A DNA stretch of 64,000 nucleotides from Rickettsiales bacterium. GTDB lineage: Bacteria; Pseudomonadota; Alphaproteobacteria; Rickettsiales; UBA998. The translations under genes and the position numbers were made by a program. A model generated the notes under the pieces. That model had not been told where the DNA came from and ran no database searches. It saw nothing but the letters and a program-made list of their open reading frames with translations. The DNA is taken from assembly GCA_041749475.1 (NCBI GenBank), contig JBGTBD010000002.1, forward strand, positions 48,417 through 112,416, read 5' to 3'. Numbering within the stretch: the stretch's first letter is position 1; each line of letters begins with the position of its first letter. Of the stretch, positions 2,532-61,564 are shown piece after piece.

Positions 2532-5222
2532 TCAATTCGTGGCCGGGGGAATACGAGGGGACGGTTCGTGGTCACGAGTGATGGTATCGGGTGTGGCAAA
2601 TAAGGAAAGCTGGTGCGGACTGATGCCATCCTGCCGGAAATTATCGATAAATCGGTGTTCGCGCAGATGTTCGACAGCTTTGCGGGCGAGTTCAAAGCGG
2701 GCGTGGGGTTCGTCCGGTGAGGTGATCTGTTCGCTGAATAATACCGCTTCATCGGGTTTAGGCCCATGGACTAGCAATGATACGTTATAGATACGCTGAT
2801 GCGTTGTACCGTTCTGTTTCTCGGAGGTGAAGCGGATGGTAAGCTGGTGATCCTTTTCAGCCTCATGCAGCACTTTGATGGGGTCTTCGGGGATGGTGTA
2901 ATCGACGATGATGTCTTTGGGCATCAATTGTTCGACCTCGGGTTTGCCGAGCAGGTTGCGCGCGGCGCGGGCAAGGGCGTCTTCCATTGAGAGCAGCGAG
3001 TTTTTACGACACCATAATGCGCCCGCGGCGCGGTATTTTTCACCGCGTTCCGGGGTTCCGGCGATGAGGCGGGCGATGGTATCACCACTTAATGTGATGG
3101 ATGCGCTGAAACCGCGTTCCACTTCTGTATCGCCGAGACGCGGCTCGGTGCGGCGGTTGCCGTTCCATTCACTCTGGGTGATGTGGTAATGGATGTCGTT
3201 CTTCTGCGCGATGTCGAGCAGCAGATCGACCGGGTACATAACGCGGCGGATGGAGGCGGCCATCGTATCCGGCAACGGCACATCTTGAATGGGAACCAGC
3301 GCATGGTTCGCCAGCGATTCGAGGAACTGGTAGCGCGACATAGCACGCGCAAGAGCGGCGTGGCCCTCGGGCATGGTGACGTAGGAAGGGGAGGCCAGCA
3401 CCTCATCCTTCAATTTCGCAACGCAGAGCGAGGCATGCAGCGGATGGCTGGCGATGTCGAGCAGGTTCTGGTTTTCCATCACGATAGAGAATTTCCCTTC
3501 GAACATTTCCTGGATGTTATCCAGCACATCATCGACACTGCCCGCATCAAATTTCAATTCGTCGAGCACCAGTTTTTTCAACTGCCGCCAATAGCCTTTT
3601 TGGGTGTGATCCTGCTCCTCATAGGCGGTTTCGCTATCATCCGGGGCATAAGCGAGGATGCTGGCATAGGTGACGATAGGGCGGATGCCTTTATGTTCCT
3701 CGATACGCGCGCGGATCTCGTTGAACAATGCGCCGTTGATCTGCCCGGTGATGGCGGCACGTTTAATGAGGGTGGTGAATTCTTCGCTTCCGGCGGCGGC
3801 GAGGATGTCGGGGTCGGGGTGTTGCATGACGCGGCGTAGCCAGCTGTCGATACGTTCTTTGCTGAGGCGCTTTTTCTCCTCCTGCGGGACGTGGAGGACG
3901 TGGTTCAGATGTTCGGAGATCTGTTGCAGATCGGAGATGCGGTATGGTAGTGCGACGGGTGGTGAATCCAGCAATCCTTCGGCCATGGTTGTGAGTGCGG
4001 AAGAATCGGGAGCTGCGATTCCTGCCGCAGTGGCACAGTGTTCCGTGACATCTTTTATCAGCGCGATAGTGGCAGGGCGTAATGCTTCCTTATCCGGCGG
4101 GGCGGCGGCATGGTATTCGTAGATCGGGCGGGTGAGTTTGCCGCCTTCCTGCCAGAGATGCTCGTGCAAATTCTGTCGGTTTTCTTCTGTGACGGCCAAT
4201 GTGGATTCGACCGTGGAGAGCATACCGAGTGCGTAGCTCATCATTTTCTGGTTGACGATATCGACATAGCGGCGCAGAGGCGAGGTCGTATGGGCGTAGG
4301 CTTTGCTGCCAACCCCTTCATGGCCGTGGCAGGTCGCCTGATACTGGGCGCGGATGCTAATGAAGTCGTTGATCTTCTGACGGGTGGCGGAACGGGTTGC
4401 TTCGTCATCGGCGCGGAGCTGATGGACGTCGAACCGGATAGGTAATCTGCCGATTTCGTAGTCGGGGACATCGGGGCCGTGGTTGCGGTAGATCAGCGGC
4501 AGGCCGTTTGCATTCGCCCATTCAGCGATGGCGGTGTTGCCGAGGATCATGGTTTCCTGGATCATGCGGTGGACTTTATGCAGGCCCGGTTGGCTGGGTT
4601 TCCAGCTGCCGACCGTGCCTTCCAGCCCAACGTCCAGCCCGGTCAGGCTATCGCTATGGATACGCTGCGTCACCTGTTCGCGGTGATGGCGCAATTGCTG
4701 CATGCGGTCGGCCATCACGCCTAGCGGGTGTGTGGGGTCTTCCATGCGTTTCGCCGCTTCCTGATGGACAAGGGATTGCACGGTGACGCGCGAACGTGAC
4801 AGGCTCGTGCCGATGATGTTGCCTTTGCGGGAAAGGTGGACGCTGGTGACCAGAGCGTTGCGTTCTCCGTCCCACAGACCGATATCTTCATACCAATGCG
4901 ATTCCAGCATGGGGATGTAGGAGGGCATGTAATTGGATTCACCGCGACGAGCGGCTTGCTTGTCGGAAAGACTACCGAGAGGGATGGCAGTGCTATCCAC
5001 TACGGCGACATGCAGCATCGTCGTTCCGTCGGGCAGGGTTTCCATGGCCACCGCATCATCCGGGTCCCGGTAGGTGCGGTGCGTGTCTTCGCTGTCGATG
5101 GCGTAGAAGGTAAGGTGGGAAAGGGCGGTGGAAAGGGGATGGCCCGATGGGGCTGGCGCGAGGGTATGGGCTTCGTTGCCGCCTCTACCTTGCATATTTC
5201 CTGCTCCGACCCATGGATGCAT
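2532..5222 (-). CDS. RNB-domain exoribonuclease (RNase II/R family) with a long C-terminal extension
   Basis: 896 aa. RNB motifs are present: FYAIDSEDTHRTYRDPDDAV and HTTSPLRRYVDIVNQ. No recognisable cold-shock or S1 motifs were seen by eye. About 450 aa after the RNB domain are unassigned. Confidence 0.75.
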   Translation of the reverse strand: MHPWVGAGNMQGRGGNEAHTLAPAPSGHPLSTALSHLTFYAIDSEDTHRTYRDPDDAVAMETLPDGTTMLHVAVVDSTAIPLGSLSDKQAARRGESNYMPSYIPMLESHWYEDIGLWDGERNALVTSVHLSRKGNIIGTSLSRSRVTVQSLVHQEAAKRMEDPTHPLGVMADRMQQLRHHREQVTQRIHSDSLTGLDVGLEGTVGSWKPSQPGLHKVHRMIQETMILGNTAIAEWANANGLPLIYRNHGPDVPDYEIGRLPIRFDVHQLRADDEATRSATRQKINDFISIRAQYQATCHGHEGVGSKAYAHTTSPLRRYVDIVNQKMMSYALGMLSTVESTLAVTEENRQNLHEHLWQEGGKLTRPIYEYHAAAPPDKEALRPATIALIKDVTEHCATAAGIAAPDSSALTTMAEGLLDSPPVALPYRISDLQQISEHLNHVLHVPQEEKKRLSKERIDSWLRRVMQHPDPDILAAAGSEEFTTLIKRAAITGQINGALFNEIRARIEEHKGIRPIVTYASILAYAPDDSETAYEEQDHTQKGYWRQLKKLVLDELKFDAGSVDDVLDNIQEMFEGKFSIVMENQNLLDIASHPLHASLCVAKLKDEVLASPSYVTMPEGHAALARAMSRYQFLESLANHALVPIQDVPLPDTMAASIRRVMYPVDLLLDIAQKNDIHYHITQSEWNGNRRTEPRLGDTEVERGFSASITLSGDTIARLIAGTPERGEKYRAAGALWCRKNSLLSMEDALARAARNLLGKPEVEQLMPKDIIVDYTIPEDPIKVLHEAEKDHQLTIRFTSEKQNGTTHQRIYNVSLLVHGPKPDEAVLFSEQITSPDEPHARFELARKAVEHLREHRFIDNFRQDGISPHQLSLFATPDTITRDHEPSPRIPPATN

Positions 5223-7255: not shown

Positions 7256-7382
7256 TTTTTTTCTACCTTTTTGCGTCGCCCGGTCTTGCGAATGGGGGAT
7301 TGGATGTGTATTTCCGACTTAAATAGTAAAGAATTACGTTCGGTGCAAGGGCTGTATTGGAGAATGACTAGATATTCTGCTC

Positions 7383-7471
7383 GTCATGGCCCGAATCACG
7401 CAGTGATTATAGGGCCATCCAGCCGTGCCATAGGACTGGATTCCCCTATAATTTTACGTGCGTAAAATTCG
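7383..7471. repeat. Palindromic element, family C
   Basis: GTCATGGCCCGAATCACGCAGTGATTATAGGGCCATCCA ... TGGATTCCCCTATAATTTTACGTGCGTAAAATTCGGGGAATGAC. Related copies lie at 26685 and 35034. Confidence 0.8.
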
Positions 7472-10355: not shown

Positions 10356-10363
10356 CCTTCAAC

Positions 10364-10480
10364 GTCATTCCAGCGAAAGCTGGAATCCAGTCGAGAGCGC
10401 CGTGGGCACGATATATTACTTAAGGGTTTGCCTGCACCGCAGACGCGGTGCGTTGGATTCCGGCTTTCGCTGGAATGACT
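10364..10480. repeat. Palindromic element, family A (long form)
   Basis: The arms are GTCATTCCAGCGAAAGCTGGAATCCAG and TTGGATTCCGGCTTTCGCTGGAATGAC. They flank an internal GCACCGCAGACGCGGTGC hairpin. Confidence 0.85.
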
Positions 10481-10503
10481 ATGTTTGAGATTCAATTATA
10501 CTT

Positions 10504-10557
10504 GTCATGCTGAACTTGTTTCAGCATCCATGGACCCTGAAACAAGTTCAGGGTGAC
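10504..10557. repeat. Palindromic element, family B
   Basis: GTCATGCTGAACTTGTTTCAGCATCC-ATGGACCCTGAAACAAGTTCAGGGTGAC. A second copy lies at 22806. Confidence 0.85.
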
Positions 10558-10564
10558 AAAACCA

Positions 10565-11155: not shown

Positions 11156-11202
11156 AGTATGGTCGTACCGCGAACAGGACTCTATTTCCACTACGAAAAT
11201 AT

Positions 11203-11273
11203 GTCATTCCCGTGAAAACGGGAATCTATGGTGGTTTATGGGAAGATGGATCCCCGCTTTCGCGGGGATGACA
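11203..11273. repeat. Palindromic element, family A
   Basis: GTCATTCCCGTGAAAACGGGAATC ... GGATCCCCGCTTTCGCGGGGATGAC. Confidence 0.8.
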
Positions 11274-11295
11274 ACATTATGGGATGAGAGACTAT

Positions 11296-14267: not shown

Positions 14268-14391
14268 AACATCCTCACTCTTATTTATTTGAGTATATCA
14301 GTGTCAACGTAGCCTTTTTAGCGATTCACTAGTTAAAGCTTGGTTAAGTTCTGGCTTTTCTCGGACTGTGACGTAAAAACACTTTATTAAG

Positions 14392-14530
14392 CCTCTCCCA
14401 CCGGGAGAGGCTGGATTTCTCCTTAGAAATCCGAGTGAGGGCCCTTTCGCCGTCCGCCCCCTCACCCAGCTTCGGCTAAGTTCGCTAGCGTTCACTAAGC
14501 CTGCGCAACCCTCTCTCTCAGGGAGAGGGA
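14392..14530. repeat. Composite palindromic element, family D
   Basis: CCTCTCCCACCGGGAGAGG-CTGGATTTCTCCTTAGAAATCCG-AGTGAGGGCC...CCCCTCAC ... CCCTCTCTCTCAGGGAGAGGG. The first ~50 nt recur inside valS (42709-42759). Confidence 0.75.
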
Positions 14531-14580: not shown

Positions 14581-14675
14581 CCCGGCTGGCGGCGGGCGAT
14601 GACCCCGTGAACCCGGTCAGGTCCGAAAGGAAGCAGCCGTAACGGATTGTTTATCGGGTCGTCCGCCAGTCCTTT
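14581..14675 (+). ncRNA. ffs: Signal recognition particle RNA (4.5S, small bacterial type)
   Basis: The conserved domain IV motif GGTCAGGTCCGAAAGGAAGCAGCC is present. The terminal helix pairs CTGGCGG (14586-) with CCGCCAG (14663-). It sits upstream of dnaX, a commonly conserved position. Ends are approximate. Confidence 0.8.
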
Positions 14676-14691
14676 TCCTACTCCCCTCATT

Positions 14692-14768
14692 GTCATTCCC
14701 GCGAAAGCGGGAATCCATGCCCATTTATGCACTAATCCTATGTGGATTCCCGCTTTCGCGGGAATGAC
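14692..14768. repeat. Palindromic element, family A
   Basis: GTCATTCCCGCGAAAGCGGGAATCCATG ... GTGGATTCCCGCTTTCGCGGGAATGAC. Confidence 0.85.
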
Positions 14769-14856
14769 AGCATATGTTAGGAATGACAAGATACTTAGGC
14801 GTAAAAATTAATATTATCTGTTGTCGCCACTACCCCCCCGCACTATAACTGGGGTC

Positions 14857-16956: not shown

Positions 16957-17012
16957 TTATTCTCTTTTCTTGCTTAGTAGCCTATCAACGGGATGGGCTA
17001 GGTAATAATTCC

Positions 17013-17071
17013 ATCATTCCTGCGAAAGCAGGAATCCAGACATTCTGGATGCCAGCATTCGCTGGCATGAC
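17013..17071. repeat. Palindromic element, family A (degenerate)
   Basis: ATCATTCCTGCGAAAGCAGGAATCCAGACATTCTGGATGCCAGCATTCGCTGGCATGAC. Confidence 0.7.
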
Positions 17072-17089
17072 GCGGAATAATACGGGTGT

Positions 17090-22689: not shown

Positions 22690-22805
22690 CCCGTTTGGGT
22701 AGCGGAAATTTAGCGCCGCTGCAACCCTTGTGGGAGACGGAATTTGCTATATATTATTCCCATAGGTACTGTGAGCCTAGGTGTAAGGGGTTAAAAACAT
22801 AGTTT

Positions 22806-22871
22806 GTCATGCTGAACTTGTTTCAGCATCCATCCTTGTTTCGGCATGGACCCTGAAACAAGTTCAGGGTG
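22806..22871. repeat. Palindromic element, family B; overlaps the stop codon of the ThiF/MoeB gene
   Basis: GTCATGCTGAACTTGTTTCAGCATCC...ATGGACCCTGAAACAAGTTCAGGGTGAT. The last codons TCA CCC TGA of the 22864 ORF are element sequence. Confidence 0.8.
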
Positions 22872-23622
22872 ATATGTTGGGATTGCATGCCATGCATTCC
22901 GGATTCTTCTCAAAAAAACTTTCTTTGAAGCGGGTGGTACGCCCGTCATAGCGCAGCAACTTTCCGCTAATCGGTGTGCCTGTATCAGCGATGAGTTTAA
23001 TCACTTCCACCGCTTGCAAACTTCCCATCACTCCGGCGATTGGGCCGAGGATCCCGTGCACCGCGCACTCGTTTGTGGCGGGGGGAAGGTCGGGAATCAG
23101 GCAACGGTAGCAGGGGCTTTTATCATCGGGGATGAATACGGATAGTTCGCCTTCCCAACCCCGTATCGCGGCATGTACCCATGGTTTGTGCTCTGCGATG
23201 CAGGCGTCATTTACACTAAAGCGCGCTGCGAAACTATCGAGTGCATCGACGATGATGTCGTAGTCTTTCACCAACGCGCGGGCGTTTGATTCATCAAAAC
23301 GAACACGGTGGGGAATGACGGTACAGCCGGGGTTTAACTCCTCGATGCGATCCATTGCGCTTTCGACTTTGTTACGACCGATGTCCCCTGTCTCGTGCAA
23401 TATCTGGCGGTTCAGGTTGGATAGCTCGACGACGTCGTAATCGACGATGCCCAGTGTGCCGATACCGGCGGCGGCAAGGTAGGAAATAGCGGCTGCGCCA
23501 AGCCCACCTGCACCGATGACGAGTACGCGCGCATCCAGCAATGCCTGCTGGCCGGATTCACCGATGCCTTGTACCAGCAGGTGGCGGGCGTAGCGGCGTT
23601 TGGTGCTGTCATCCATGCTCAT
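22864..23622 (-). CDS. HesA/MoeB/ThiF-family adenylyltransferase
   Basis: MSMDDSTKRRYARHLLV.GIG..GQ..L, the nucleotide loop VIGAGGLG, and CxxC pairs (CYRC, CMAC). I start at 23622 (ATGA overlap with the upstream ORF), not at the 332-aa track start. Confidence 0.85.
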   Translation of the reverse strand: MSMDDSTKRRYARHLLVQGIGESGQQALLDARVLVIGAGGLGAAAISYLAAAGIGTLGIVDYDVVELSNLNRQILHETGDIGRNKVESAMDRIEELNPGCTVIPHRVRFDESNARALVKDYDIIVDALDSFAARFSVNDACIAEHKPWVHAAIRGWEGELSVFIPDDKSPCYRCLIPDLPPATNECAVHGILGPIAGVMGSLQAVEVIKLIADTGTPISGKLLRYDGRTTRFKESFFEKNPECMACNPNISP

Positions 23623-26684: not shown

Positions 26685-26773
26685 GTCATTCCCCGAATTT
26701 TGCTCCGCAAAATTATAGGGAAATCCAGCTCTCTGGATCGCCCTATAATCGCTGACGCGATTCGGGCGATGAC
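26685..26773. repeat. Palindromic element, family C
   Basis: GTCATTCCCCGAATTTTGCTCCGCAAAATTATAGGGAAATCCAG...CTGGATCGCCCTATAATCGCTGACGCGATTCGGGCGATGAC. Confidence 0.85.
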
Positions 26774-35033: not shown

Positions 35034-35133
35034 GTCACTCCCCCGAATTTTATGTAATAAAATTATAGGGGAATCCATTTTTTCTCTTATGTTCTGGATG
35101 GCCCTATAATCGCATTGCGATTCGGGCCATGAC
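35034..35133. repeat. Palindromic element, family C
   Basis: GTCACTCCCCCGAATTTTATGTAATAAAATTATAGGGGAATCCA...TGGATGGCCCTATAATCGCATTGCGATTCGGGCCATGAC. Confidence 0.85.
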
Positions 35134-35148
35134 GAGTAGATTAATGAT

Positions 35149-36372: not shown

Positions 36373-38829
<2,457 letters not shown>

Positions 38830-38841
38830 TTTTTTTCTTTT

Positions 38842-38929
38842 GTCATTCCTGCGAAGGCAGGAATCAGTAATCTTAGAATTCTGTGGCGCAGACGCACCAC
38901 GCTGGATTCCAGCTTTCGCTGGTATGACG
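38842..38929. repeat. Palindromic element, family A (long form)
   Basis: GTCATTCCTGCGAAGGCAGGAATCAG ... GTGGCGCAGACGCACCAC ... CTGGATTCCAGCTTTCGCTGGTATGAC. Confidence 0.85.
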
Positions 38930-38946
38930 ATTCTATTGTATCCGGC

Positions 38947-41032: not shown

Positions 41033-43669
41033 CTAAGCGACTTCGGCGTTCTCCGCGAAGGTGATGCCGAGGCGGAAGGTCTTGTCCTCCGTGAAGGTGA
41101 CGATGGGGCTAATCTGTTTCGGCTGGGCGTCCACCACCCATTCGGCGCTGTGGGCATTGCAAGCGGCCTTGAGGTCGAACTCGGTATTGACGAGGGAGAG
41201 CCACACCTGATCCTCGATATCCTCTTCGGTGCTGACGATGATCTCCTGTACCGGGAATTTCAGCGAGACGTTCTTTTCGGATTTGGCCTTGCGTACCGTG
41301 TTCAGCATGGAAACCGCGTGGATACCCGCTTGTTCGGCGATGTCGCTGTAGGGATAGAGCTCGGCGTTCGGCCACATACCGCGGGCGTGCAGCGAGCCGG
41401 TGAGTTGGAATTCCTGCTCAAAGACGTTCGAGAAAATCTCCTCCGTGATGTGGGGGACGAAGGGGGCGAATAATTTGAGGACGGCGTTCAGGCAGTGCCA
41501 GAGCGTGTGACAGGCGGATTGCTGTTCGGCTTTCCCCGCATTGCCATAGGCGCGGGATTTGACGAGTTCGAGATAATTATCGCAGAAGTCGTTCCAGAAG
41601 AAATCCTCGACGGCCATACGCGCGTCACAATATTCATAGGCGCTGAATTCGGTCGTGGCGCGTTGGATGGTCTTGTGCAGACGCGAGATGATCCAGAGAT
41701 CGAGCGTCTCGAAAATCACGCCGGATTCGATGGCATGGCGCGCGGTGGAGGGCGTGCCTTCCAACTGCTCCAGTTGCAGGCCGACGAACTTTGAGGCGTT
41801 CCATAGTTTCGTCACCAGTTTGCGGCCGATCTTCAAGAGGTCTTCGGAAAAGGCCGTATCCGCGCCGAGGCGGGAGGTGGAGGCCCAATAGCGCACCGAG
41901 TCGGTTCCTTTTTCTTCGATCAGCTCCACGGGGGTGACGACGTTGCCTTTGGATTTGGACATTTTCGTTTTATCTGAGGCCAGACACCAGCCGGAGATCA
42001 TCAGGGATTTCCATGGGGTGGTGTTCTCATGCAGATGGGCTTTCACCAGCGTGTAGAACGCCCAGGTGCGGATGATCTCGTGCGCTTGCGGGCGCATGTC
42101 GGCGGGGAAGAGTTTGCTGTAGCGCGTGGCGTCCAGCATGTCTGTGTCGTTGATGCCTTTGGCGGAGAGTTGCGGGGAGACAGAGGAGGTCGCCCATGTG
42201 TCCATCACGTCGGCTTCGGCTTCGACTTCATCGCGCGTGTAACCCTTGGGCAAATCGACCAGCGGGTTGACGGGGAGTTGGTCTGGCGTGCCGACGAGGA
42301 CTTTGCCTTCTTCACCGGGGCGTTTGGAAAACCAGACGGGGAAGGGTACGCCGTAATAACGTTGGCGCGAAATACACCAGTCCCAATTTAATCCATCAAT
42401 CCATTGCTCCATGCGCAGTTGCATCCATTCGGGATACCACTTACAGACGCGGGATTTGTCTTTGAGCTGTTCCTTCTGGTCGAGGATTTTGACGAACCAT
42501 TGGTAGGTGGGGAGGATTTCCAGCGGTGCGCCGGAACGCTCGGCGCATTTCACGGCGTGGGTGATGGGTTTGGATTCGATGAGGTCGCCGGAGGCTGCGA
42601 GCATTTCAAGAATTTTTTGCCGTGCGCCGGGATGTTTGGGGTCAGTGTTGGTGACTTTGAGGCCTTGGAGGGCTGCATAGGCTTCCTTTGCTCCGGGGAG
42701 AACCATGTCGCCCTCACCCGAAATGCTTTCGGCATTTCGACCTCTCCCGGTGGGAGAGGTGAAGTCCAGTTTGCCGTATTTGTTGAGTACGATCCGCATG
42801 TCTAAATCATGCTTCCGCCATTTTTCGATGTCCTTCTCGTCACCGAAAGTACAGCACATCATAATGCCTGTTCCCTTGTCCGGCTCGACCGTATCGTCGG
42901 TGAGGATGGGGACTTTTACGCCGAAGAGGGGGGTGATGGCGTGTCTGCCCTTTAGATGCGTATAGCGGTCGTCATCGGGATGGTAAAAAATAGCGACGCA
43001 GGCGGGGATGAGTTCGGGGCGCGTCGTGCCGATGGTAATTTTTTCCGACGAGCCATCAATCGCGAACGTGATGTCGTTAAACGTGCTCGGCAGTTCTTTA
43101 TCTTCGATCTCGGCTTGCGCGATAGCGGTTTGGTCTACGGGGTCCCAGAGCATCGGCTGGAGTTTGCGGTAGGCGTTATTCTTGTGGAAGAGGTCGAGGA
43201 AGGACATCTGCGAGATCTTCCGCGATTCGTCGCTGATGGTGTGATACTCTTGACGCCAATCGACCGAGAGGGCGGCGGACTGGAAGAGGCGGCGGAATTC
43301 GGCGCGGGCTTCGAGAGTGACGATATTGCACTGCTCGATAAATTCCTCACGCGACATATCGGTCGCGCGTTTCTTAATGATCTTCTCGACTAGCCGTTCG
43401 GTGGGGAGGCCGTTATCGTCGAAGCCCATCGGATAAAACACGGTCTTGCCCAGCATGCGCTGGAAGCGGGCGACAAAATCGCAATGGGTATAGCTGAAGA
43501 TATGGCCCATGTGCAGCAGGCCGGACACGGTGGGAGGAGGGGTGTCAATGACGAACGTGTCCTCCCGGCTGGCGGATTCGTCCCAATGGTACGTCCCAGC
43601 GGTCAGCCAGTGTTCCTGCCAGTGTTTTTCACGGAGTGTATGGTCATATTGGTCGGGTAATGGGCGCAT
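41033..43669 (-). CDS. valS: Valine--tRNA ligase (Rickettsia/archaeal-like type)
   Basis: 878 aa with the HIGH-type motif PPPTVSGLLHMGHIFSY and KMSKSKGN. The N-terminal region resembles Rickettsia ValRS as I remember it. No long C-terminal coiled-coil is obvious. Confidence 0.95.
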   Translation of the reverse strand: MRPLPDQYDHTLREKHWQEHWLTAGTYHWDESASREDTFVIDTPPPTVSGLLHMGHIFSYTHCDFVARFQRMLGKTVFYPMGFDDNGLPTERLVEKIIKKRATDMSREEFIEQCNIVTLEARAEFRRLFQSAALSVDWRQEYHTISDESRKISQMSFLDLFHKNNAYRKLQPMLWDPVDQTAIAQAEIEDKELPSTFNDITFAIDGSSEKITIGTTRPELIPACVAIFYHPDDDRYTHLKGRHAITPLFGVKVPILTDDTVEPDKGTGIMMCCTFGDEKDIEKWRKHDLDMRIVLNKYGKLDFTSPTGRGRNAESISGEGDMVLPGAKEAYAALQGLKVTNTDPKHPGARQKILEMLAASGDLIESKPITHAVKCAERSGAPLEILPTYQWFVKILDQKEQLKDKSRVCKWYPEWMQLRMEQWIDGLNWDWCISRQRYYGVPFPVWFSKRPGEEGKVLVGTPDQLPVNPLVDLPKGYTRDEVEAEADVMDTWATSSVSPQLSAKGINDTDMLDATRYSKLFPADMRPQAHEIIRTWAFYTLVKAHLHENTTPWKSLMISGWCLASDKTKMSKSKGNVVTPVELIEEKGTDSVRYWASTSRLGADTAFSEDLLKIGRKLVTKLWNASKFVGLQLEQLEGTPSTARHAIESGVIFETLDLWIISRLHKTIQRATTEFSAYEYCDARMAVEDFFWNDFCDNYLELVKSRAYGNAGKAEQQSACHTLWHCLNAVLKLFAPFVPHITEEIFSNVFEQEFQLTGSLHARGMWPNAELYPYSDIAEQAGIHAVSMLNTVRKAKSEKNVSLKFPVQEIIVSTEEDIEDQVWLSLVNTEFDLKAACNAHSAEWVVDAQPKQISPIVTFTEDKTFRLGITFAENAEVA
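42709..42759. repeat. Family D palindromic element copy lying in frame inside valS
   Basis: The minus-strand sequence is CCTCTCCCACCGGGAGAGG-TCGAAATGCCGAAAGCATTTCG-GGTGAGGGCG. Nineteen of 19 and 8 of 8 nt match the intergenic copy at 14392, with an analogous middle hairpin. It is 51 nt (17 codons) and is translated as SPTGRGRNAESISGEGD. Confidence 0.65.
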
Positions 43670-43721: not shown

Positions 43722-46700
43722 TTAGAAGCTTAAACCCGGAATTTCGAAGGGTGTTGACTTGACTCCGGACGTTCCATCGCCACTGGATTGCGATTTTCCG
43801 TTCCCACCCCAGCAATACATCTTACCGTTCAGCCGTAATCCGCAGCTGTGATCCACCTGGGTGGTCACATACTGCCAATCCGTGGCTGTGCCGATTTTAG
43901 CCGGGGTCGAGATGGAGCCGGTCGTAGTCCCGTTCCCTACGAGACCGCCGGTTTGATCGCCCCAGCAATATAGTTCACGGTTGGAACGGATCCCGCAGGT
44001 GTGCGTATTGGCAGGGGCAAGCTGTGCCCAGTCGGTATGGCTACCCAATACCAGCGTGGGTATGTTGCGGTCAGTCGTCGTCCCGTCGCCCACTTGGCCG
44101 TCCGAGTTACTTCCCCAGCAATAGGCGCGGTATCCGTTACGGATGCCGCATGTGGTGTCATGCAGCGTGTAGATACCGACCCAGTCGGTATGGTTTCCAC
44201 TGACTTGCACGGGTGAACTTTGGTCGGTGTTGTTGCCATTGCCCAGCTGACCGGAGCTATTATCGCCCCAGCAGTATGCCCTGCCGGTGGATTGGATGCC
44301 GCAGGCGTGTTCTCCCCCGGTGGCGAATTTTACCCATTCATTACTGGAGCCGGCAACTTCGGTTGGGACGTAACGGTCTGTGGTGGAGCCATCACCCACC
44401 GTGCCGGCGGTGTTGGTTCCCCAGCAATAGAGGCGGCCGTTATTACGCAACGCACATACGGTGCGGCCATCTACGTCGAAGTCCACCCAGTCGGTATAGC
44501 CACCTGAGATTTCAACCGGTACATCAGTATCCGTTGCAGCTGGGCCTTGTCCCAGCCATGGGCCTGCGAAGCCCCAGCAATAGAGTTTGCCGTTACGCAG
44601 ACCACAGCTACCTTGAAAATCGGTATCGATGGAATCCCAGTCCGTGTAGCCGCCGCTCACCACCGAAGCCGCAACAGCAGCCGTGTCATGATCCACCAGA
44701 TCGCCGACCCCGAGAACCGGGCCGCCCAGACCCCAGCATCGCGCCACCCCGCTGTCCTCGACAGCACAGGTCATTTTATTCCCGGTCGATATACGCTTCG
44801 TACCGTACGCAGGGCAGCTCATGCTGGGAAGAGGAGTAATCCGCGTCGGTATAGAGATATCGGAAGCGGGACGCGGGGTGATGCCCAGTGCGCCCGGCCC
44901 GGTGGCACGATCTACATCTCCCCAACAATAGACGGAACAACCGATGCGTCCACATACGGATTCTTCGCCAGGTTTGACTTCATTCCAGCCGGTCTTGGAT
45001 CCATTGACTGCGGTTGGCGTCGTCGCTTGCGATGCCGTGCCGCCACCAACTCCCAGCGGGCCAAAGGAATTTTTACCCCAGCAGTAGGCTGTGTTGCTGG
45101 TGCCACGGATACCGCAAGCCATGGCATAGTTGGCATCCACATACGTCCAGTCGCTGAAGCCGCTATTATTTTCCGTCGGTATCGCTTTATTCGTCGTATT
45201 CCCGATACCTAGCTGTCCAACATCGTTCAGACCCCAGCAATAAATACGGTTATTGCGGATGCCGCAGCTGAAATCCTCGCCGACCGCAACGGTTGACCAG
45301 TCGCTATATGCGCCGTATACGATGGTCGGGTCATATTGATCGGCGAGCGTTGTATCGTCCCCTAATTCCCCGTGGGAATCATTCCCCCAGCAATAGAGCC
45401 GTCCGTCAACCTTAAGGGCGCAGGAATGATTATGACCCCCATCCACCTGCTTCCAATAGCGATATGACGTATCAGGAACAGCCGTCGCCGCCGTAGGTGC
45501 AGAACGTGTGGTGGTCGTTCCGTCACCTAGCTTACCGTTGGTATTTGCCCCCCAGCAATAAAGGTGTCCGTCCGAGCGGATGGCACAGGAATGCTGTTGG
45601 CCGACGCCGACTTCAGACCAGTCTGTATAAGTCTGCACGTCATTAGGCACTAGATTATTGGTGGTACTGCCATCGCCCAGACTATGGTTGGCGCCACTGC
45701 CCCAGCATTGGACGACTCCGGTTTTGTGCAAGGCACACGTATGATCGTCTACCGAGGTGAGCTTCAGATAATTTGTCTGGTTGCCGGAGACCGACACTGG
45801 GCCATCCGAATTCACACCGGACCCGTCACCCAAATCGCCATTAACGTTTTGACCCCAGCAATAGGCGCGGCCGCTATCAATGACGCAAGCATGGTCGCTT
45901 CCCACAGCAAGTTGCGACCCGAAGAGCGAGGTGGGGTGAGTGCCCCCTGCTACGACTGGGGTGCCGTCACAATTCATATTGATTGAGTCCACCAATTTCG
46001 GCGTGGACGAGCTGATGGTGGAGCCATCTCCGAACTGGCCGATGGAATTATCTCCCCAGCAATACATCTGGCCCGAGGCACGAAGACCGCAAATATACTG
46101 GCTGGTATTAACGACATAGACCCAATCCGTGATACCTCCTGGCACTTCTTTAGGTAATCTAATGCAATTGGTATTGTTCACTGAAGAGCTGACGGTGGCA
46201 CAATTGATTGTGGTGCTGCTGGGATCAATCAGGCCATTAAAATTCATTCCCCAACAATACATACGTCCATTCGTTCGAATTCCGCAGGATGTGTCGCCAG
46301 GTTTTACATAGACCCAATCATCCCAATAAACCCCGTTTACATCACTTTCCACTTTTACAGGGGTAGCGCGATATGTAATTGTGCCATCGCCAAGATTTCC
46401 ATAATCATTATCTCCGAAACAATAAGCTTCACCATTGCTACGGACGGCGCACGTGGAACGAGAATTGACGCTTCCTCCACTCGTTACGCTCACAAAATCA
46501 GCGAAACCGCTGATCTGGTTGGGGACCTGTCGATGTTGTGCCAACCCTGATCCACCATCCACGTCTCCATCAAGATTGTCACGTCCCCAACAATATAAAA
46601 GACCGGTTCCTCGAATTCCACAGGTGTTATTGTGACCACCTGCCATGATTTGAACCCAGTCTGAATAGCCTGGTGTAGAATCATCGGACTTATGCACTTC

Positions 46701-48116
46701 TTGAGGTGTAGATTTAAAATTGGGGTCGCATTTGCCATCCGAATTCGTATCCACGCAGCCTATTCCTAATTGTCCATAAATGTCTGCACCCCAGCAATAC
46801 GCTTTCGCAGAACCGGGGGCTCCAACAAGACCACAGGTATTGCTGTTTGCGGCGCTGATTTGGCTCCAATTTGTAAATCCTCCGCTTACCAGTTGAGGAT
46901 AGGGATATTTGGTATCGGTGGTTAATCCGTTCCCCATACGTCCGTAGGATTCTCCTCGTCCCCAGCAATACGCTTTCCCATTGCTGACCCCGCACGGACC
47001 ATTGGCACCGCCGGGGGAAATACTCGTCCAATTGGAAAGCCCCTCCACTCGGTTAGGTATGGTACGAAAATCAGGTAGAACCTCGTCTACACCATCTCCA
47101 TTGGATTCTCCCGTATCATCTCCCCAACAGTACAATTCTCCATTTGCGTCGATGGCACAACTAAAATCAGCGCCTGTGGCAATCTTCCCAAATGTGGTGG
47201 TGGCCGTACAGCTGCCGCTGGAAGAAGATGATGTGGAAGAGCTCGTACTCGATGATGTGGAAGAGCTCGTGCTCGATGATGTGGAAGAGCTCGTGCTTGA
47301 GGAAGTAGAGGAGCCCGAGGACGACGACCCACCCGATGAACTTGAGGATGAGCTGGTGGTGGCGATGCTGGAGGTCATTTCCTGACGCGTCCGGGTGATC
47401 ACTACATCGTAATAATAGCCGCTTCCGCTTGCTATATCGATAATGGGGGCATTGGTGAAGCTGGCGTCGTTGTCGCAATTCTTGCGATCCAGTTCCGTTG
47501 ATCCGCAGGCGGTAAGAACACCGTTTTTGGAATACCCGCCTTTCCGATCCTTCCCATGACTGATGAGGGCATAGGCGTTTACGTCCAGCGTTGTACCGCC
47601 GGAGGTGACGGCGTCCGCAGCATCGCGGATTTCAATCACGCCATTGGTCAGTGCGGTCGTGTACCCGTCGTATAATGATGTGCTGCGTGCCAGTTGCTTG
47701 ATGACCACATATTTAATGCGGTTGCCCCATTTGTCGTACATATAACTATCGGGGATAGAAAGAGCGCGGGTAGGGACCACACCGATGCGTAATGCGTCGG
47801 TCGAAGCGCCGCCTGCCGGGGTGGCATCCGCCGTACCTGCCGGTGCGGCCGCGCTACAATCCGTCGGCTTACCAAAGGTTGTAGAATTAGTGGCCGTTAC
47901 GCCACTAGCGGGGCAGGGAAGATAGCCACGCTTCTGATAGAAAGTCGCCAGCGCGTTCTGGATTTCTTCCATATGGTCGGTCGTGGTGTTGAGGGACGCC
48001 TTGTCGCGGCGGACGGTATTGGAGGACAGCAAGCCGGCCATCAGGATGCCAAGTACCGCCAGAATGACGGATAGTTCGATCAGGGAAAAACCGTGTAGAT
48101 GGCGTTTATGCTGCAT
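43722..48116 (-). CDS. Giant prepilin-signal protein: pilin-like N-domain + Ser/Thr linker + 21 RCC1-type beta-propeller blades
   Basis: 1464 aa. It has a class III signal MQHKRHLHG|FSLIELSVILAVLGIL (Gly-1, Phe+1, Glu+5), a ~230-aa domain shared with three paralogues, and a ~55-aa Ser/Thr tract. I counted 21 C[WF]G-centred repeats by eye (consensus ..DW....G..H[ST]C[GA][IL]R..G..YCWG.N..GQLGDG.T..), which fits RCC1-like repeats. Confidence 0.85.
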   Translation of the reverse strand: MQHKRHLHGFSLIELSVILAVLGILMAGLLSSNTVRRDKASLNTTTDHMEEIQNALATFYQKRGYLPCPASGVTATNSTTFGKPTDCSAAAPAGTADATPAGGASTDALRIGVVPTRALSIPDSYMYDKWGNRIKYVVIKQLARSTSLYDGYTTALTNGVIEIRDAADAVTSGGTTLDVNAYALISHGKDRKGGYSKNGVLTACGSTELDRKNCDNDASFTNAPIIDIASGSGYYYDVVITRTRQEMTSSIATTSSSSSSSGGSSSSGSSTSSSTSSSTSSSTSSSTSSSTSSSTSSSSSGSCTATTTFGKIATGADFSCAIDANGELYCWGDDTGESNGDGVDEVLPDFRTIPNRVEGLSNWTSISPGGANGPCGVSNGKAYCWGRGESYGRMGNGLTTDTKYPYPQLVSGGFTNWSQISAANSNTCGLVGAPGSAKAYCWGADIYGQLGIGCVDTNSDGKCDPNFKSTPQEVHKSDDSTPGYSDWVQIMAGGHNNTCGIRGTGLLYCWGRDNLDGDVDGGSGLAQHRQVPNQISGFADFVSVTSGGSVNSRSTCAVRSNGEAYCFGDNDYGNLGDGTITYRATPVKVESDVNGVYWDDWVYVKPGDTSCGIRTNGRMYCWGMNFNGLIDPSSTTINCATVSSSVNNTNCIRLPKEVPGGITDWVYVVNTSQYICGLRASGQMYCWGDNSIGQFGDGSTISSSTPKLVDSINMNCDGTPVVAGGTHPTSLFGSQLAVGSDHACVIDSGRAYCWGQNVNGDLGDGSGVNSDGPVSVSGNQTNYLKLTSVDDHTCALHKTGVVQCWGSGANHSLGDGSTTNNLVPNDVQTYTDWSEVGVGQQHSCAIRSDGHLYCWGANTNGKLGDGTTTTRSAPTAATAVPDTSYRYWKQVDGGHNHSCALKVDGRLYCWGNDSHGELGDDTTLADQYDPTIVYGAYSDWSTVAVGEDFSCGIRNNRIYCWGLNDVGQLGIGNTTNKAIPTENNSGFSDWTYVDANYAMACGIRGTSNTAYCWGKNSFGPLGVGGGTASQATTPTAVNGSKTGWNEVKPGEESVCGRIGCSVYCWGDVDRATGPGALGITPRPASDISIPTRITPLPSMSCPAYGTKRISTGNKMTCAVEDSGVARCWGLGGPVLGVGDLVDHDTAAVAASVVSGGYTDWDSIDTDFQGSCGLRNGKLYCWGFAGPWLGQGPAATDTDVPVEISGGYTDWVDFDVDGRTVCALRNNGRLYCWGTNTAGTVGDGSTTDRYVPTEVAGSSNEWVKFATGGEHACGIQSTGRAYCWGDNSSGQLGNGNNTDQSSPVQVSGNHTDWVGIYTLHDTTCGIRNGYRAYCWGSNSDGQVGDGTTTDRNIPTLVLGSHTDWAQLAPANTHTCGIRSNRELYCWGDQTGGLVGNGTTTGSISTPAKIGTATDWQYVTTQVDHSCGLRLNGKMYCWGGNGKSQSSGDGTSGVKSTPFEIPGLSF
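47227..47298. repeat. 24-bp tandem repeat (3 near-identical units plus degenerate flanks) encoding the (SSST)n linker
   Basis: GATGATGTGGAAGAGCTCGTACTC / ...GTGCTC / ...GTGCTT at 47227, 47251 and 47275. The minus-strand translation is SSTSSSTSSSTSSS... Confidence 0.9.
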
Positions 48117-51180: not shown

Positions 51181-53088
51181 TCAGTATGCGGTCACTAAAA
51201 CGGGTGCATCTATCGGGGACCCGGCAGTACCTGTGCCAACCTGGCCAAAATCGTTTCTTCCCCAGCAGTAAAGCTGGTCTTTACCTGCGCGCAAACCACA
51301 TGCGGGACCGCTGATGGTAATGGATTTCCAATCCGTATACGCTCCAGTTACTTCAGTGGGAAGCAAAATGTTTGCCGTACCACTCCCGTTACCCAGCTTT
51401 TCATTCAAATCGCTACCCCAGCAGTAGAGTTTTCCACCCGCACGAATGGCGCAGACGGATTGGTAATCCACATCCACATCCGTCCAATCCGACCAGTTTC
51501 CTGCACCTGTATCATTCTTAACCTGTACAGGCGTAACCGCGTCTGTTCCTGCCGAGTTGATGCCTAACCCTCCATCATCATTTCGTCCCCAGCACCAAAG
51601 CTGCCCCGTACTGCGCAAAGCGCACACCAAATCATCCTCGCTTTTCAATTTTTGGACATCGTGAAAATTGCCAATAGGGGACATAGTGCGTACATCGTAT
51701 TTATTATCCGTGCTACCATCCGCCAGGCCACCATACTGATTTTTCCCCCAACAATAGGCATTGTAATTACCGGATTGGTTGCGGATGCCGCAACTTAGTT
51801 TATAGCCAACAGCGGTATATACCCAGTCACTATAGCCGCCCAACACTTCCTTAGGCCGCAATTCATTTGCCCCGGGAGCGGTCGCCGTGCCCAGCTGGCC
51901 CTTATCATTAATTCCCCAGCAATAGAGATGCCCGGCGCGTATGGCGCATGTGTGGTTGGCATCCAGATCGAAGCTCGTCCATCCAGAGTTTGTGCCTCCG
52001 ATTCCAGCGGTGGAGACGGAGACGGGCCGGACTCTTTGCGTAGTGGTATTATCCCCAAGCTCACCATTCGCATTACTTCCCCAGCACCAGAGTTCATCCA
52101 TGCCGCGGATACCGCAGGTATTAAGATTATCGAGATGAATGTTCTTCCAATCAGTCCAGAATCCTGTTCCTGTGCTATCTACCACCTGTGTGTAAGTTGT
52201 TCTGTCTCCAGTCGTGCCATCTCCCAACTGACCATTCGAGTTGTTACCAATGCAATAAGCCGATCCCTTCGCGCGAATGATACAATTATTTTTCCACCCA
52301 CCATCCGCCACAACCTTAATGGAATCATCGGCTTCGGCGGTTCCGATCAGGCTGGACAATAAACGCCAGTGAAGGCGGTCGTAATAGAAATCGCCGTTAG
52401 ATGGGCTGGCGGTATCGGTGATGTCCGCATCAATGAAATTCAGATCATTGTCGCAATTCTCACTATCCTTGGTGGTTCCGCATGCCTCCGTAATCGCGCC
52501 GTTCTTCATATAGGCGCCCTTTTTATCGCCCCCATGACTGATGACGATATAGGCGACGATGCTGTCTACGGCCGCTTCTGTGATCTGGTTGTCATTGATG
52601 TCGGTGATATGGATAACCCCGTCCGTCCGAGAGGTCTGATAGGTGGTCAGGGTTGAGGTGGTCTTCCCCATGTCCTTAACGATGGCATAGGTGAATCTTC
52701 CGCCCCAGGGATCATAGGCGTAGGAATCGGGAAGCATGAGACTGCGCGTAGGCAGCATACCTATGCGTACGGTATCGCTGCCGCTTCCGACATCCACCGT
52801 CCCGGCGGGTGCGGCGGCTGTGCAAACCGAACTGCGGCCGAACGCGGCGGTGTTTTCCGCCGAGGTGCGCGAAGCGGGGCAGGGGAGTATGCTGTTTTGT
52901 TTGATGTAGCCTTTGATGGCGGCGTCGATCGTCTCCATCTGATCCTGCAGTTTTTTCAGGTTGGTGTTTTCGGTGTGCGATGCGGTCAACGCCAGTACGC
53001 TGCCGGTGATGATGCCGAGCACCGCGATGACAAGCGACATCTCGATAAGTGAAAATCCATAAGACGAACGTGAACGGCGCTGTTTCAT
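51181..53088 (-). CDS. Prepilin-signal protein: pilin-like N-domain + 7 RCC1-type blades
   Basis: 635 aa beginning MKQRRSRSSYG|FSLIEMSLVIAVLGII. It has the shared N-domain motifs and 7 C[WI]G repeats. One nt separates it from each neighbouring gene. Confidence 0.85.
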   Translation of the reverse strand: MKQRRSRSSYGFSLIEMSLVIAVLGIITGSVLALTASHTENTNLKKLQDQMETIDAAIKGYIKQNSILPCPASRTSAENTAAFGRSSVCTAAAPAGTVDVGSGSDTVRIGMLPTRSLMLPDSYAYDPWGGRFTYAIVKDMGKTTSTLTTYQTSRTDGVIHITDINDNQITEAAVDSIVAYIVISHGGDKKGAYMKNGAITEACGTTKDSENCDNDLNFIDADITDTASPSNGDFYYDRLHWRLLSSLIGTAEADDSIKVVADGGWKNNCIIRAKGSAYCIGNNSNGQLGDGTTGDRTTYTQVVDSTGTGFWTDWKNIHLDNLNTCGIRGMDELWCWGSNANGELGDNTTTQRVRPVSVSTAGIGGTNSGWTSFDLDANHTCAIRAGHLYCWGINDKGQLGTATAPGANELRPKEVLGGYSDWVYTAVGYKLSCGIRNQSGNYNAYCWGKNQYGGLADGSTDNKYDVRTMSPIGNFHDVQKLKSEDDLVCALRSTGQLWCWGRNDDGGLGINSAGTDAVTPVQVKNDTGAGNWSDWTDVDVDYQSVCAIRAGGKLYCWGSDLNEKLGNGSGTANILLPTEVTGAYTDWKSITISGPACGLRAGKDQLYCWGRNDFGQVGTGTAGSPIDAPVLVTAY

Positions 53089-53089
53089 A

Positions 53090-54988
53090 TCAGAATGTCA
53101 ATCCCGGTAAGACTTGAGGTGAAAGTACGTTTGTTGAATTGCCATGCTCGAACCAGCAATAGGCTTTGCGATCGGATTTGATGCCGCAGTGGTGCGCTAT
53201 ATCGATCCATCCTGAGCTGCCACCTACGATAAGGCCTGGGGTGTAGCGTGCGGTGGGGGCATTGTTGTCACCTAATTCTCCCTGTGTGTTGCCTCCCCAA
53301 CATTGTATGGCACCGGCATAGGTAAGACCGCAGGTGGAGTCATTATCGGGTTTTATCTTTTTCCAATCGGTGATGCTACCCGTAACGAGACTGGGCGCAA
53401 GGATGGTTCCGCCGGCGGATCCTGTGCCAATCTGGCCGGAAGCGTTTGAACCCCAGCAATAGGCGCGGTTGCCATTGCGAATACCACAAAAATGGGAATG
53501 ACCACCTCCCACATAGACCCAGTCCGCATATAGGCCGCTTACTTCGGTGGGGAGTGACTTATCCGCTGTAGTTCCATCCCCTAACTCGCCCATTCCGTTC
53601 TCTCCCCAGCAGAACAAACGGTTGTTGCGCAAGCCACATGAGCTTAACTGACCAATGGATACCATATTCCAATCGGTCCAGTTTCCCGTCCCGGCACTGT
53701 CTCTCACTTGTGTAGGGATGCGTCTGTCAGCAGCGGTATTATCCCCTACCTGTCCACTATCGTTCCTTCCCCAGCAATAGAGCGCGCCCGTACTGCGAAT
53801 TGCGCAGGCATGAAAGCCGTCGACATCGAGTTTTGCCCAATCCGTGAAATTAGGGGAAGTAATCTGGGTAGGCGTATTGACGTTGTACGTGCCACTTGCC
53901 TGATTCAACCCTAAACATCCAGGGTGACCGCCGGAAGCGCAGTTCCCGCCCCAGCAATAAAGTTTGCCGCCGCGTATGCCGCAGGTGAATTGCCAATCGG
54001 TTTTGATGATGTCCCAATCCGTATATCCACTTGCCCCTCCGACCTGTCCGCCGGGTGAGGTGGCGTATGTTCCTCCAGAAGCGCCAACACCCAACCTGCC
54101 ATTATTCGTGCTGCCGCTGCCTGCATTATCGTTTCCCCAGCAATAGGGAATGCCGTTTTGTTCGATGGCGCAGGAATAGAGATTCCCGTTATCAAGACGA
54201 TCCTCAGCGGTGAACGTGCTGTCTTCCGTTGCTGCAACTTCTCCTTCGCTTAGGACGTCTTGGGATTTCCAGCTGACGATGTCGTCGTAATAGCGGGTTG
54301 CGGTGGGGCTATCCACCACGTCACTGGCGCGGAATATGGCGTCAGTCCCATCACAATTCGCGCCGTCCTTGCTTCCGGCGCTACAGGCGATGGTGATTGT
54401 TCCTGCTTTGGAATAGGCTCCCTTTTTATCCTTTCCGTGACTGATGAGCGTATAGGCGATGATAGATTTGGTAGAGGCATCAGGAATCTGGTTGCCGTTA
54501 TAGTCCAGGATATTGATAACACCCGTGGTGGCGGTCGTTGCGTAGTTCTCGTATGAATCCGCGGTGGTGGCGAGGTCTTTGATGAGGGCGAAGGTGAAGC
54601 GGTTGCCCCAGCCGTCGTAAAAATATTCGTCCGGCAAGTTAAGTGAACGGGTGGGAACCGTGCCGATCCATATCGTATTTTCACCTGCCCCCCTTTCAAT
54701 GATGGACGCGGGGGCTGCGGCAGTACAATCCGCCGCGATTCCGAACGTGGCGCTCTCCTCGGCAGCATCCGGCGGGGCCACGCAGGGTAGATATCCGGTG
54801 CGTTCGACATATTGGGAGAGGGCGTCCTCGATGGCGTTCATGTGATAGCGGGTGGTAACGTAGCCGGAGCTTTCCAATTGTGCGTTCATGATGGCGAGGA
54901 CGCCGCCGGTCATCGTCGCTATCAGCAATAGCACGACCGACATTTCGACGAGTGTAAACCCTGCGCGCGACCCTTTAGCAAACATCAT
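53090..54988 (-). CDS. Prepilin-signal protein: pilin-like N-domain + 7 RCC1-type blades
   Basis: 632 aa beginning MMFAKGSRAG|FTLVEMSVVLLLIATM. It has the shared N-domain motifs and 7 repeats, the last one degenerate (YCWF). Confidence 0.85.
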   Translation of the reverse strand: MMFAKGSRAGFTLVEMSVVLLLIATMTGGVLAIMNAQLESSGYVTTRYHMNAIEDALSQYVERTGYLPCVAPPDAAEESATFGIAADCTAAAPASIIERGAGENTIWIGTVPTRSLNLPDEYFYDGWGNRFTFALIKDLATTADSYENYATTATTGVINILDYNGNQIPDASTKSIIAYTLISHGKDKKGAYSKAGTITIACSAGSKDGANCDGTDAIFRASDVVDSPTATRYYDDIVSWKSQDVLSEGEVAATEDSTFTAEDRLDNGNLYSCAIEQNGIPYCWGNDNAGSGSTNNGRLGVGASGGTYATSPGGQVGGASGYTDWDIIKTDWQFTCGIRGGKLYCWGGNCASGGHPGCLGLNQASGTYNVNTPTQITSPNFTDWAKLDVDGFHACAIRSTGALYCWGRNDSGQVGDNTAADRRIPTQVRDSAGTGNWTDWNMVSIGQLSSCGLRNNRLFCWGENGMGELGDGTTADKSLPTEVSGLYADWVYVGGGHSHFCGIRNGNRAYCWGSNASGQIGTGSAGGTILAPSLVTGSITDWKKIKPDNDSTCGLTYAGAIQCWGGNTQGELGDNNAPTARYTPGLIVGGSSGWIDIAHHCGIKSDRKAYCWFEHGNSTNVLSPQVLPGLTF

Positions 54989-55147: not shown

Positions 55148-55232
55148 GCGGGTATGGCGAAATTGGCAGACGCACCAGATTTAGGTTCTGGCGCCGCAAG
55201 GCGTGGGGGTTCAAGTCCCTCTACCCGCACCA
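55148..55232 (+). tRNA. tRNA-Leu (anticodon UAG), CCA encoded
   Basis: Hand-folded. The acceptor stem pairs GCGGGTA with TACCCGC. The anticodon arm is CCAGA-TTTAGGT-TCTGG, giving TAG. The long variable arm is CGCCGCAAGGCG. The T arm is GGGGG-TTCAAGT-CCCTC. The 3' end is ACCA. Confidence 0.9.
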
Positions 55233-61521: not shown

Positions 61522-61549
61522 GTGTCATTCCCGCTTTCGCGGGAATGAC
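61522..61549. repeat. Palindromic element, family A (single-hairpin short form)
   Basis: GTGTCATTCCCGCTTTCGCGGGAATGACAT. Confidence 0.75.
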
Positions 61550-61564
61550 ATGCGGGTGGTTTGC

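Follow-up and report, generated by a model that had tools for sequence, protein, structure and literature searches.

The window analysed here, a 64-kb stretch of contig JBGTBD010000002.1, comes from an alphaproteobacterium with a genomic G+C content of about 55%, the nearest named relatives of which are annotated as Rickettsiales metagenome-assembled genomes (MAGs). It contains valS, the gene for a valyl-tRNA synthetase (ValRS) of the archaeal/rickettsial type, and within the coding sequence of valS lies a short hairpin-rich repeat, of which a second copy is present between genes at position 14392. The protein has the features of a class Ia ValRS, i.e. the HIGH and KMSKS motifs (HMGH at residues 53-56 and KMSKS at 569-573), a connective peptide 1 (CP1) editing domain, and an anticodon-binding domain. 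Precomputed Pfam matches are tRNA-synt_1 and Anticodon_1, the best structural match is the T. thermophilus ValRS 1GAX (E = 6.7e-81), and the isolated editing-domain structures 1WK9 and 1WKA align to residues 200-302. A first-pass annotation of the sequence had proposed that the repeat was inserted in frame, with the reading frame preserved and both signature motifs intact, and the uninterrupted open reading frame (ORF) bears this out. The gene order valS-DUF898-peptidase M48 is present in the loci of the orthologues P0002 and P0115, and the ORFs downstream of valS in the window, which are unannotated, fit this order in size and sequence of genes.

On the coding strand, the reverse complement of 42709..42759 reads CCTCTCCCACCGGGAGAGG-TCGAAATGCCGAAAGCATTTCG-GGTGAGGGCG, while position 14392 reads CCTCTCCCACCGGGAGAGG-CTGGATTTCTCCTTAGAAATCCG-AGTGAGGGCC, both as given in the first-pass annotation. 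The initial 19 nt, which form the first hairpin, are identical at the two sites: the exact 19-mer occurs at 14392 on the plus strand and at 42741 on the minus strand, with 0.01 matches at three or fewer mismatches expected from shuffled sequences. The middle segments, described earlier as structurally equivalent, are indeed both perfect 8-bp hairpins (z = -3.8 and -3.6) and are unrelated in sequence. The same core, GTGAGGGC, follows the 19-mer in both copies, although this 8-mer taken alone is not significant in the window (4 observed vs 2.1 expected). The intergenic copy, which lies between divergent genes and upstream of the signal recognition particle (SRP) RNA, is a longer composite that folds into five hairpins (z = -4.3). 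Hairpins 1 and 2 are followed by a GTGAGGG...CCCTCAC hairpin, a further hairpin, and the terminal hairpin CCCTCTCTCTCAGGGAGAGGG, and a degenerate copy of hairpin 1 is present at 14510. The SRP (4.5S) RNA itself was found at 14583-14675 (55.7 bits), about 50 nt downstream of the end of the composite repeat. The coordinates of the features are compiled in Table 1.

Table 1. Features of the valS locus and of the repeats in the window.
Feature	Position	Strand	Basis or remark
valS, archaeal/rickettsial-type valyl-tRNA synthetase	41033..43669	minus	878 aa, reading frame intact (ORF list and translation)
Recognisable whalefall-1-like unit in valS (left unit of the family)	42709..42766	minus	Rfam and nhmmer
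Hairpin 1, CCTCTCCC-ACC-GGGAGAGG	42741..42759	minus	identical to 14392..14410
Hairpin 2, TCGAAATGC-CGAAA-GCATTTCG	42719..42740	minus	fold
Purine-rich G box, GGTGAGGGCG	42709..42718	minus	Rfam alignment
Extra codons D321-E329 (DMVLPGAKE)	42682..42708	minus	without counterpart in empty-site orthologues
Full-length composite of the same family, intergenic	14392..14529	plus	sequence, Rfam match, fold
Type B-family doublets, TGTCATTCCCGCGAAAGCGGGAATCCA and its inverse	10362-10484, 11201-11277, 14690-14773, 17011-17076, 38840-38933, 61522-61554		

Both copies match the Rfam family whalefall-1 (RF01762) over the full length of the model, i.e. at 42710..42762 in valS (30.2 bits, model positions 1-56 of 56) and at 14389..14442 in the intergenic region (30.1 bits, model positions 1-56), the gathering threshold being 37 bits. 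With the whole window searched, the E-value is about 7e-4 for either match, and these are the only two such matches in the 64 kb. The family was defined by Weinberg et al. 2010 (PMC2864571); it was described as a non-coding small RNA (sRNA) known only from whale-fall metagenomes and rated as certainly an RNA, based on covariation and tetraloops. The three-part anatomy recognised in the first-pass annotation is that of whalefall-1: in the covariance model alignment and in the folds, both window copies consist of hairpin 1 (CCUCUCC...GGAGAGG in the family), a variable hairpin 2, and a purine-rich GGGUGAGG box. The valS copy has UCACCUCUCC, GGAGAGGUCGAAA, and UUUCGGGUGAGG in common with the seed sequence wf1_Contig538, and its hairpin-2 base, GGTCGAAA...TTTCGGG, is shared by this seed and by more than 120 listed metagenome copies. 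The remaining seeds have a GAUUUC...GAAAUC second hairpin, as does the copy at 14392, and most seeds are inverted pairs separated by tens of bases on a single contig. In contrast to the family as described, the valS copy is below the threshold and coding, and it lies within an intact coding sequence rather than being a free-standing sRNA gene. Metagenome relatives found with the pattern of the valS copy scored 45.4, 40.8, 39.4, 38.4, and 38.3 bits, grading down to 28.3 bits; these values bracket the 30 bits of the window copies, which therefore fall within one graded family or continuum. At the level of sequence and structure, the copies in valS and at 14392 belong to a whalefall-1-like family.

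The first-pass annotation had delimited the insertion as 51 nt, corresponding to 17 codons. The 51-mer is indeed 17 codons long, but it begins at codon position 2 of T304 and finishes at position 1 of D321, so that the wholly encoded residues are S305-G320, and the profile homology extends slightly further 5', to 42766. In addition, 33 residues separate the Lys of the NKYGK motif from a conserved Leu (LQGLK in the window) vs 7-9 residues in those orthologues whose loops are shortest. This gives a net insertion of 24-26 codons, above the 17 recognised, and the inserted DNA probably comprises about 72-78 nt, of which the first 51-58 nt are recognisable. Using a profile of the metagenome copies, nhmmer aligned 42766..42709 with E = 9.3e-12, a value to which the pattern region contributes by construction, the left arm of hairpin 1 lying outside the pattern. 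The alignment ends at 42709, and the valS copy is therefore the left unit only; 3' of 42709, nhmmer with the family profile gave no support for homology in valS. The extra codons listed in Table 1 were delimited by comparison of loop lengths with the empty-site orthologues P0004, P0007, P0118, and P0069. They are possibly a degenerate remainder of the element, as TCTCCCCG..GAGC resembles the right terminal hairpin of the family, a weak resemblance that was spotted by eye post hoc. When copies of the family are translated in the same frame, they yield ..GRGRN...ISGEGD.., like the peptide in ValRS, which is therefore the default reading of the element. As read from the sequence, four of the six frames are open across the unit, so that survival in frame is not improbable.

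The peptide was found in none of 119 ValRS orthologues, the nearest of which is 73% identical, in agreement with a lineage-specific insertion, for which the first-pass annotation had suggested an alignment of orthologues as a test. The insertion site is located between the conserved motifs NKYGK[LM]DF and LQGLK, in a hypervariable loop with lengths of 15-73 aa across 102 orthologues. In the alignment to 1GAX it falls between T. thermophilus residues 301 and 317, i.e. in the CP1 editing domain as proposed in the first-pass annotation, and C-terminal of the region to which 1WK9 and 1WKA align. In an AlphaFold2 model, for which 69 sequences were aligned, the mean predicted local distance difference test score (pLDDT) was 88.3, and the only segments with values <50 were residues 306-322 and the KMSKS loop. 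The inserted residues are thus predicted to form a disordered loop, which is compatible with the surface loop anticipated earlier. The copy in valS is lineage-specific, and the frame is intact. Homologous residues in repeat-free relatives had been named as evidence that would refute an insertion; with the nearest orthologue at 73% identity, a hypervariable site, and other palindromic families in many relatives, the comparison is not a clean test. The CTTCA at the junction looks native, the Asp-Phe codons being conserved in orthologues, but it is also typical of the left flank of the family, in which TCA precedes CCTC in 13 of 37 copies. This leaves the precise junction ambiguous, with microhomology as a possibility.

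The distribution of the family extends far beyond the window. Among the matches listed (loci L001-L119), the exact 19-mer CCTCTCCCACCGGGAGAGG occurs in genomes of many unrelated phyla, i.e. Chloroflexota, Planctomycetota, Pseudomonadota, Cyanobacteriota, Acidobacteriota, and others. For 71 of the 123 listed occurrences in other genomes, GTGAGG is present within 70 nt downstream of the 19-mer, vs upstream in only three, while CCTCAC is found upstream in 37 of the 123 vs downstream in 11. In 26 listed occurrences, hairpin 1 and the G box are further apart, with a longer spacer between them. The spacer is usually a hairpin of unrelated sequence, as 20 of the 26 equal or surpass 90% of their shuffles in folding. 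The hairpin-2 pattern GGAGAGGTCGAAA-N(6-24)-TTTCGGGTGAGG, derived from the valS copy, was found on more than 120 metagenome contigs among the matches listed (JGI metagenomes). The 37 metagenome copies with two recognisable ends have lengths of 127-152 nt, except for one of 91 nt and one of 199 nt, and the order in the full-length form is hairpin 1, hairpin 2, GGGTGAGGGG...CCCCTCACCCC, and a terminal hairpin corresponding to hairpin 1 in inverse orientation. The family consensus and 14392..14529 both have inverted hairpins at either end, whereas the valS copy has no clear right end. To judge from these sequences, full-length members are palindromic composites of roughly 125-200 nt that resemble MITEs (miniature transposable elements with inverted repeats).

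Among 122 metagenome copies, none of the eight longest stop-free stretches resembles a gene interrupted by the element. Four of these eight were scanned against Pfam, and the one match obtained was a GST gene beginning downstream of the element. Long stop-free stretches were rejected as candidates for intragenic copies, being high-GC artefacts or genes that start downstream of the element, and the 122 copies yielded no convincing further case within a gene. Two further arrangements were observed. A metagenome contig (L235) has three whalefall-1 matches above the Rfam threshold at 774-894 and 3830-3883, two of which form an inverted pair. One whalefall-1 copy on this contig directly adjoins an element of a second family, termed type A below (TCATTGCGAGCGAAGCGCGGCAATC), and the two families therefore coexist and nest in some genomes. 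In an Anaerolineales MAG (DAOTZA010000047.1, about 700-819 of the locus), hairpin 1 and a CCCTCACCCC box are repeated head to tail about every 42 nt, unlike the dispersed copies.

The ValRS loop has received other repeats in relatives. The DNA of six orthologues (P0002, P0003, P0006, P0031, P0058, and P0115) contains other palindromic families in the same loop, i.e. type A, CGTCATTGCGAGG...CGCAATGACG, in P0003, P0031, and P0058 and as a half copy in P0002, and type B, CGTCATTCC..GGAATC...GATTCC..GGAATGACG, in P0006 and P0115; for orthologues beyond these six, the insertion type was read from peptide signatures only. Type A begins after base 1 of the codon following Phe/Leu, which is the position of CCTCTCCC in the window, and type B begins six bases further on. 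The full-length identity of P0003 and P0004 is 84%, and their sole gap is a 26-codon (78-nt) type A element, so that they constitute a clean pair of a filled and an empty site. In a neighbour-joining tree, the nearest relatives variously have nothing (P0004, P0007), type A (P0003, P0002), or type B (P0006) at the site, which argues for several independent events. Relatives have thus recurrently acquired insertions of other palindromic families here. Repeat-like insertions are also present in four other ValRS loops of the clade, and for P0074 a full W-type element in frame, in the loop at about residue 509, was confirmed at the DNA level; its hairpins amount to about 125 nt, in a fragment that folds at -81 kcal/mol. 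These results demonstrate that the loop is tolerant, but they do not demonstrate active targeting.

In the window, type B elements (families D9 and D12) are common between genes, as placed on the ORF map. The TGTCATTCCCGCGAAAGCGGGAATCCA family is the more abundant one there, and all of its copies in Table 1 but 61522-61554 lie clearly between long ORFs; this is the family that P0006 and P0115 carry in frame in their ValRS loop. Type A (GTCATTGCGAGG) is no more common in the window than expected by chance, and the genome is therefore not obviously a carrier of type A. Further dispersed inverted-repeat families, of which TTGTCATGCTGAACTTGTTTCAGCATCCATGGACCCTGAAACAAGTTCAGGGTGACAA is an example, are present at 10500-10560 and 22803-22877 and also at 7373-7458 with 35094-35143 and 26706-26736. 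Sub-threshold Rfam matches to AaHKsRNA41 (22799-22955) and FtrB (38819-38875) overlap with repeat copies.

We consider it highly probable that the valS segment is a genuine in-frame insertion of a whalefall-1-type unit, comparable to the Rickettsia palindromic elements (RPEs), that is translated as an unstructured loop. In the best-supported interpretation, a hairpin repeat of the selfish, non-autonomous kind entered a permissive loop, where it serves as disordered filler. A unit of the family, consisting of hairpin 1, a variable hairpin 2, and a GGTGAGGG box, would have inserted at the codon that follows Phe303, within a CP1 editing-domain loop at the surface, presumably by a transposition-like or template-switch event. 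With a length divisible by three and a frame free of stops, the gene stayed intact. The element would now be translated as an unstructured loop extension of SPTGRGRNAESISGEG plus about eight further residues, and the approximately 25 nt 3' of the recognisable copy would be the decayed remainder of a longer copy. The insertion is likely to be neutral, and the copy may have been kept owing to a loop in which nearly every insertion is tolerated, and not owing to any function of the peptide.

Several observations weigh against this interpretation. The nearest orthologue is 73% identical, and there is no close relative with an empty site, so that the boundaries as well as the insertion event are inferred. 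The window contains only two copies of the family, and both of their Rfam scores (30.2 and 30.1 bits) remain below the gathering threshold. The 37 full-length metagenome copies do not have a consistent flanking duplication, the palindrome merely extending by a few bases, and no transposase, RAYT, or other mark of mobility was identified, though no search for transposases was made. Lastly, both hairpins are still perfect, which might mean either that the copy arrived recently or that their structure is itself under selection.

Selection on the structure would be expected if the hairpins were kept as RNA within the valS transcript, be it as a processing or stability element, as a translational pause, or as a source of a whalefall-1 sRNA. 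The motif indeed lies on the valS sense strand, each stem is a perfect 8-bp helix, and the family was rated certainly an RNA by Weinberg et al. 2010 (PMC2864571). However, a recent insertion predicts perfect stems equally well, and the inverted pairs and the palindromic composites in both orientations fit a repeat that acts at the DNA level. As relatives have unrelated hairpin families or nothing at the site, no conserved RNA function is tied to this position, and we regard an RNA role as improbable. Selection could alternatively act on the protein, the peptide having been co-opted to extend the editing domain functionally, e.g. for binding of tRNA or a partner. Its location in CP1 and the repeated retention of insertions at this loop by ValRS of the clade are compatible with such a role. 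Yet the pLDDT values are <50, the peptide is the default translation of the family, and the insertions at the loop are unrelated in sequence and length, several close relatives having a minimal loop, which together make recruitment quite improbable.

Chance similarity of GC-rich hairpins, with the loop being ordinary ValRS sequence, had been named in the first-pass annotation as a further way in which the proposal might fail. The core GTGAGGGC alone is not enriched in the window, and the two middle hairpins have no sequence in common, but this explanation would have to account for an exact 19-mer with an expectation of 0.01, for full-length matches of both sites to one covariance model (E about 7e-4), for the nhmmer match (E = 9e-12), and for more than 120 listed independent environmental copies with the same hairpin-2 base and G box. 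Its probability is practically negligible. A more far-reaching reading than the neutral insertion favoured above combines two proposals, namely that whalefall-1 is a repeat module and not an sRNA gene and that ValRS loops are actively targeted; taken jointly, they appear doubtful. Whalefall-1 may be the terminal module of a class of exonisable hairpin repeats spread over many bacterial phyla. A few ValRS loops of Rickettsiales-like alphaproteobacteria, this loop foremost, may act as landing pads on which at least three unrelated hairpin families have settled recurrently. The same-nucleotide precision of the insertions would suggest targeting directed by structure or microhomology, or replacement of one hairpin element by another, and not mere tolerance.

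For Rickettsia, the in-frame insertion of palindromic elements is an oddity found in textbooks, and as a phenomenon the insertion in valS is thus already known. The first-pass annotation had called the element RPE-like, and this applies to its behaviour: it is a dispersed palindromic repeat in frame in a housekeeping gene, the reading frame is preserved, it is translated, and its position is predicted to be compatible with the fold (pLDDT <50 at 306-322, in a hypervariable loop). The host, an alphaproteobacterium with Rickettsiales MAGs as its nearest named relatives, fits as well. Membership in an RPE family is without support. The element resembles whalefall-1 instead and is probably not a Rickettsia RPE, and we know of no sequence relationship between it and any RPE family. 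Further differences are the genomic G+C content of about 55% and the occurrence of the element class across many phyla, not only in Rickettsia. The size differs as well, as the overview of RPEs (Ogata et al. 2000/2002) in PMC10969869 gives about 150 bp, vs 51-58 nt (net about 75 nt) for the valS unit. With MITEs and with repetitive extragenic palindromic (REP) and REPIN sequences (Correia, ERIC, REP doublets), the family shares its short, non-coding, hairpin-rich, multi-copy nature and the inverted doublets, and its full-length element has inverted hairpins at both ends. In contrast, the valS copy is half an element, and target-site duplications were not seen in the 37 metagenome copies.

A limited literature search did not yield any description of an inserted element with the whalefall-1 architecture, of this motif as part of a MITE-like palindromic repeat that is widespread, in place of a whale-fall-specific sRNA, of one ValRS editing-domain loop colonised by at least three unrelated hairpin families, or of W-type elements in frame at more than one valS loop; string searches for the motif, equally limited, returned nothing relevant. 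The results suggest that the process known from Rickettsia also acts in a different lineage of higher G+C content with a different element family. They link the Rfam "sRNA" whalefall-1 to a widespread, mobile-looking repeat, so that the family may need reinterpretation. The loop in the editing domain of an essential enzyme offers a natural system for asking whether insertions are targeted or tolerated, and whether they ever give rise to functional segments of the protein.

Whole domains also appear to have been inserted in this clade. Precomputed Pfam matches to the nuclease-like domains DUF559 (PF04480) and MTES_1575 (PF18741) are present in the ValRS of P0005, P0046, P0056, P0059, P0073, and P0111, and DUF559/MTES_1575 matches were also obtained for a 1475-aa protein encoded by an isoleucyl-tRNA synthetase-like gene (L247, 2422-6849). 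This suggests that some class I tRNA synthetases of the clade have acquired whole-domain insertions in addition to hairpin repeats. Very large ORFs are located on the minus strand of the window at 43722-48116, 51181-53088, and 53090-54988. They consist of repeats of about 153 nt, each ending with codons for YCWG, which suggests RCC1-type repeats, and the orthologous loci L121 and L248 likewise have RCC1-domain genes immediately upstream of valS. A 24-nt tandem repeat lies at 47203-47322, and a tRNA was found at 55148-55229 (54.8 bits).

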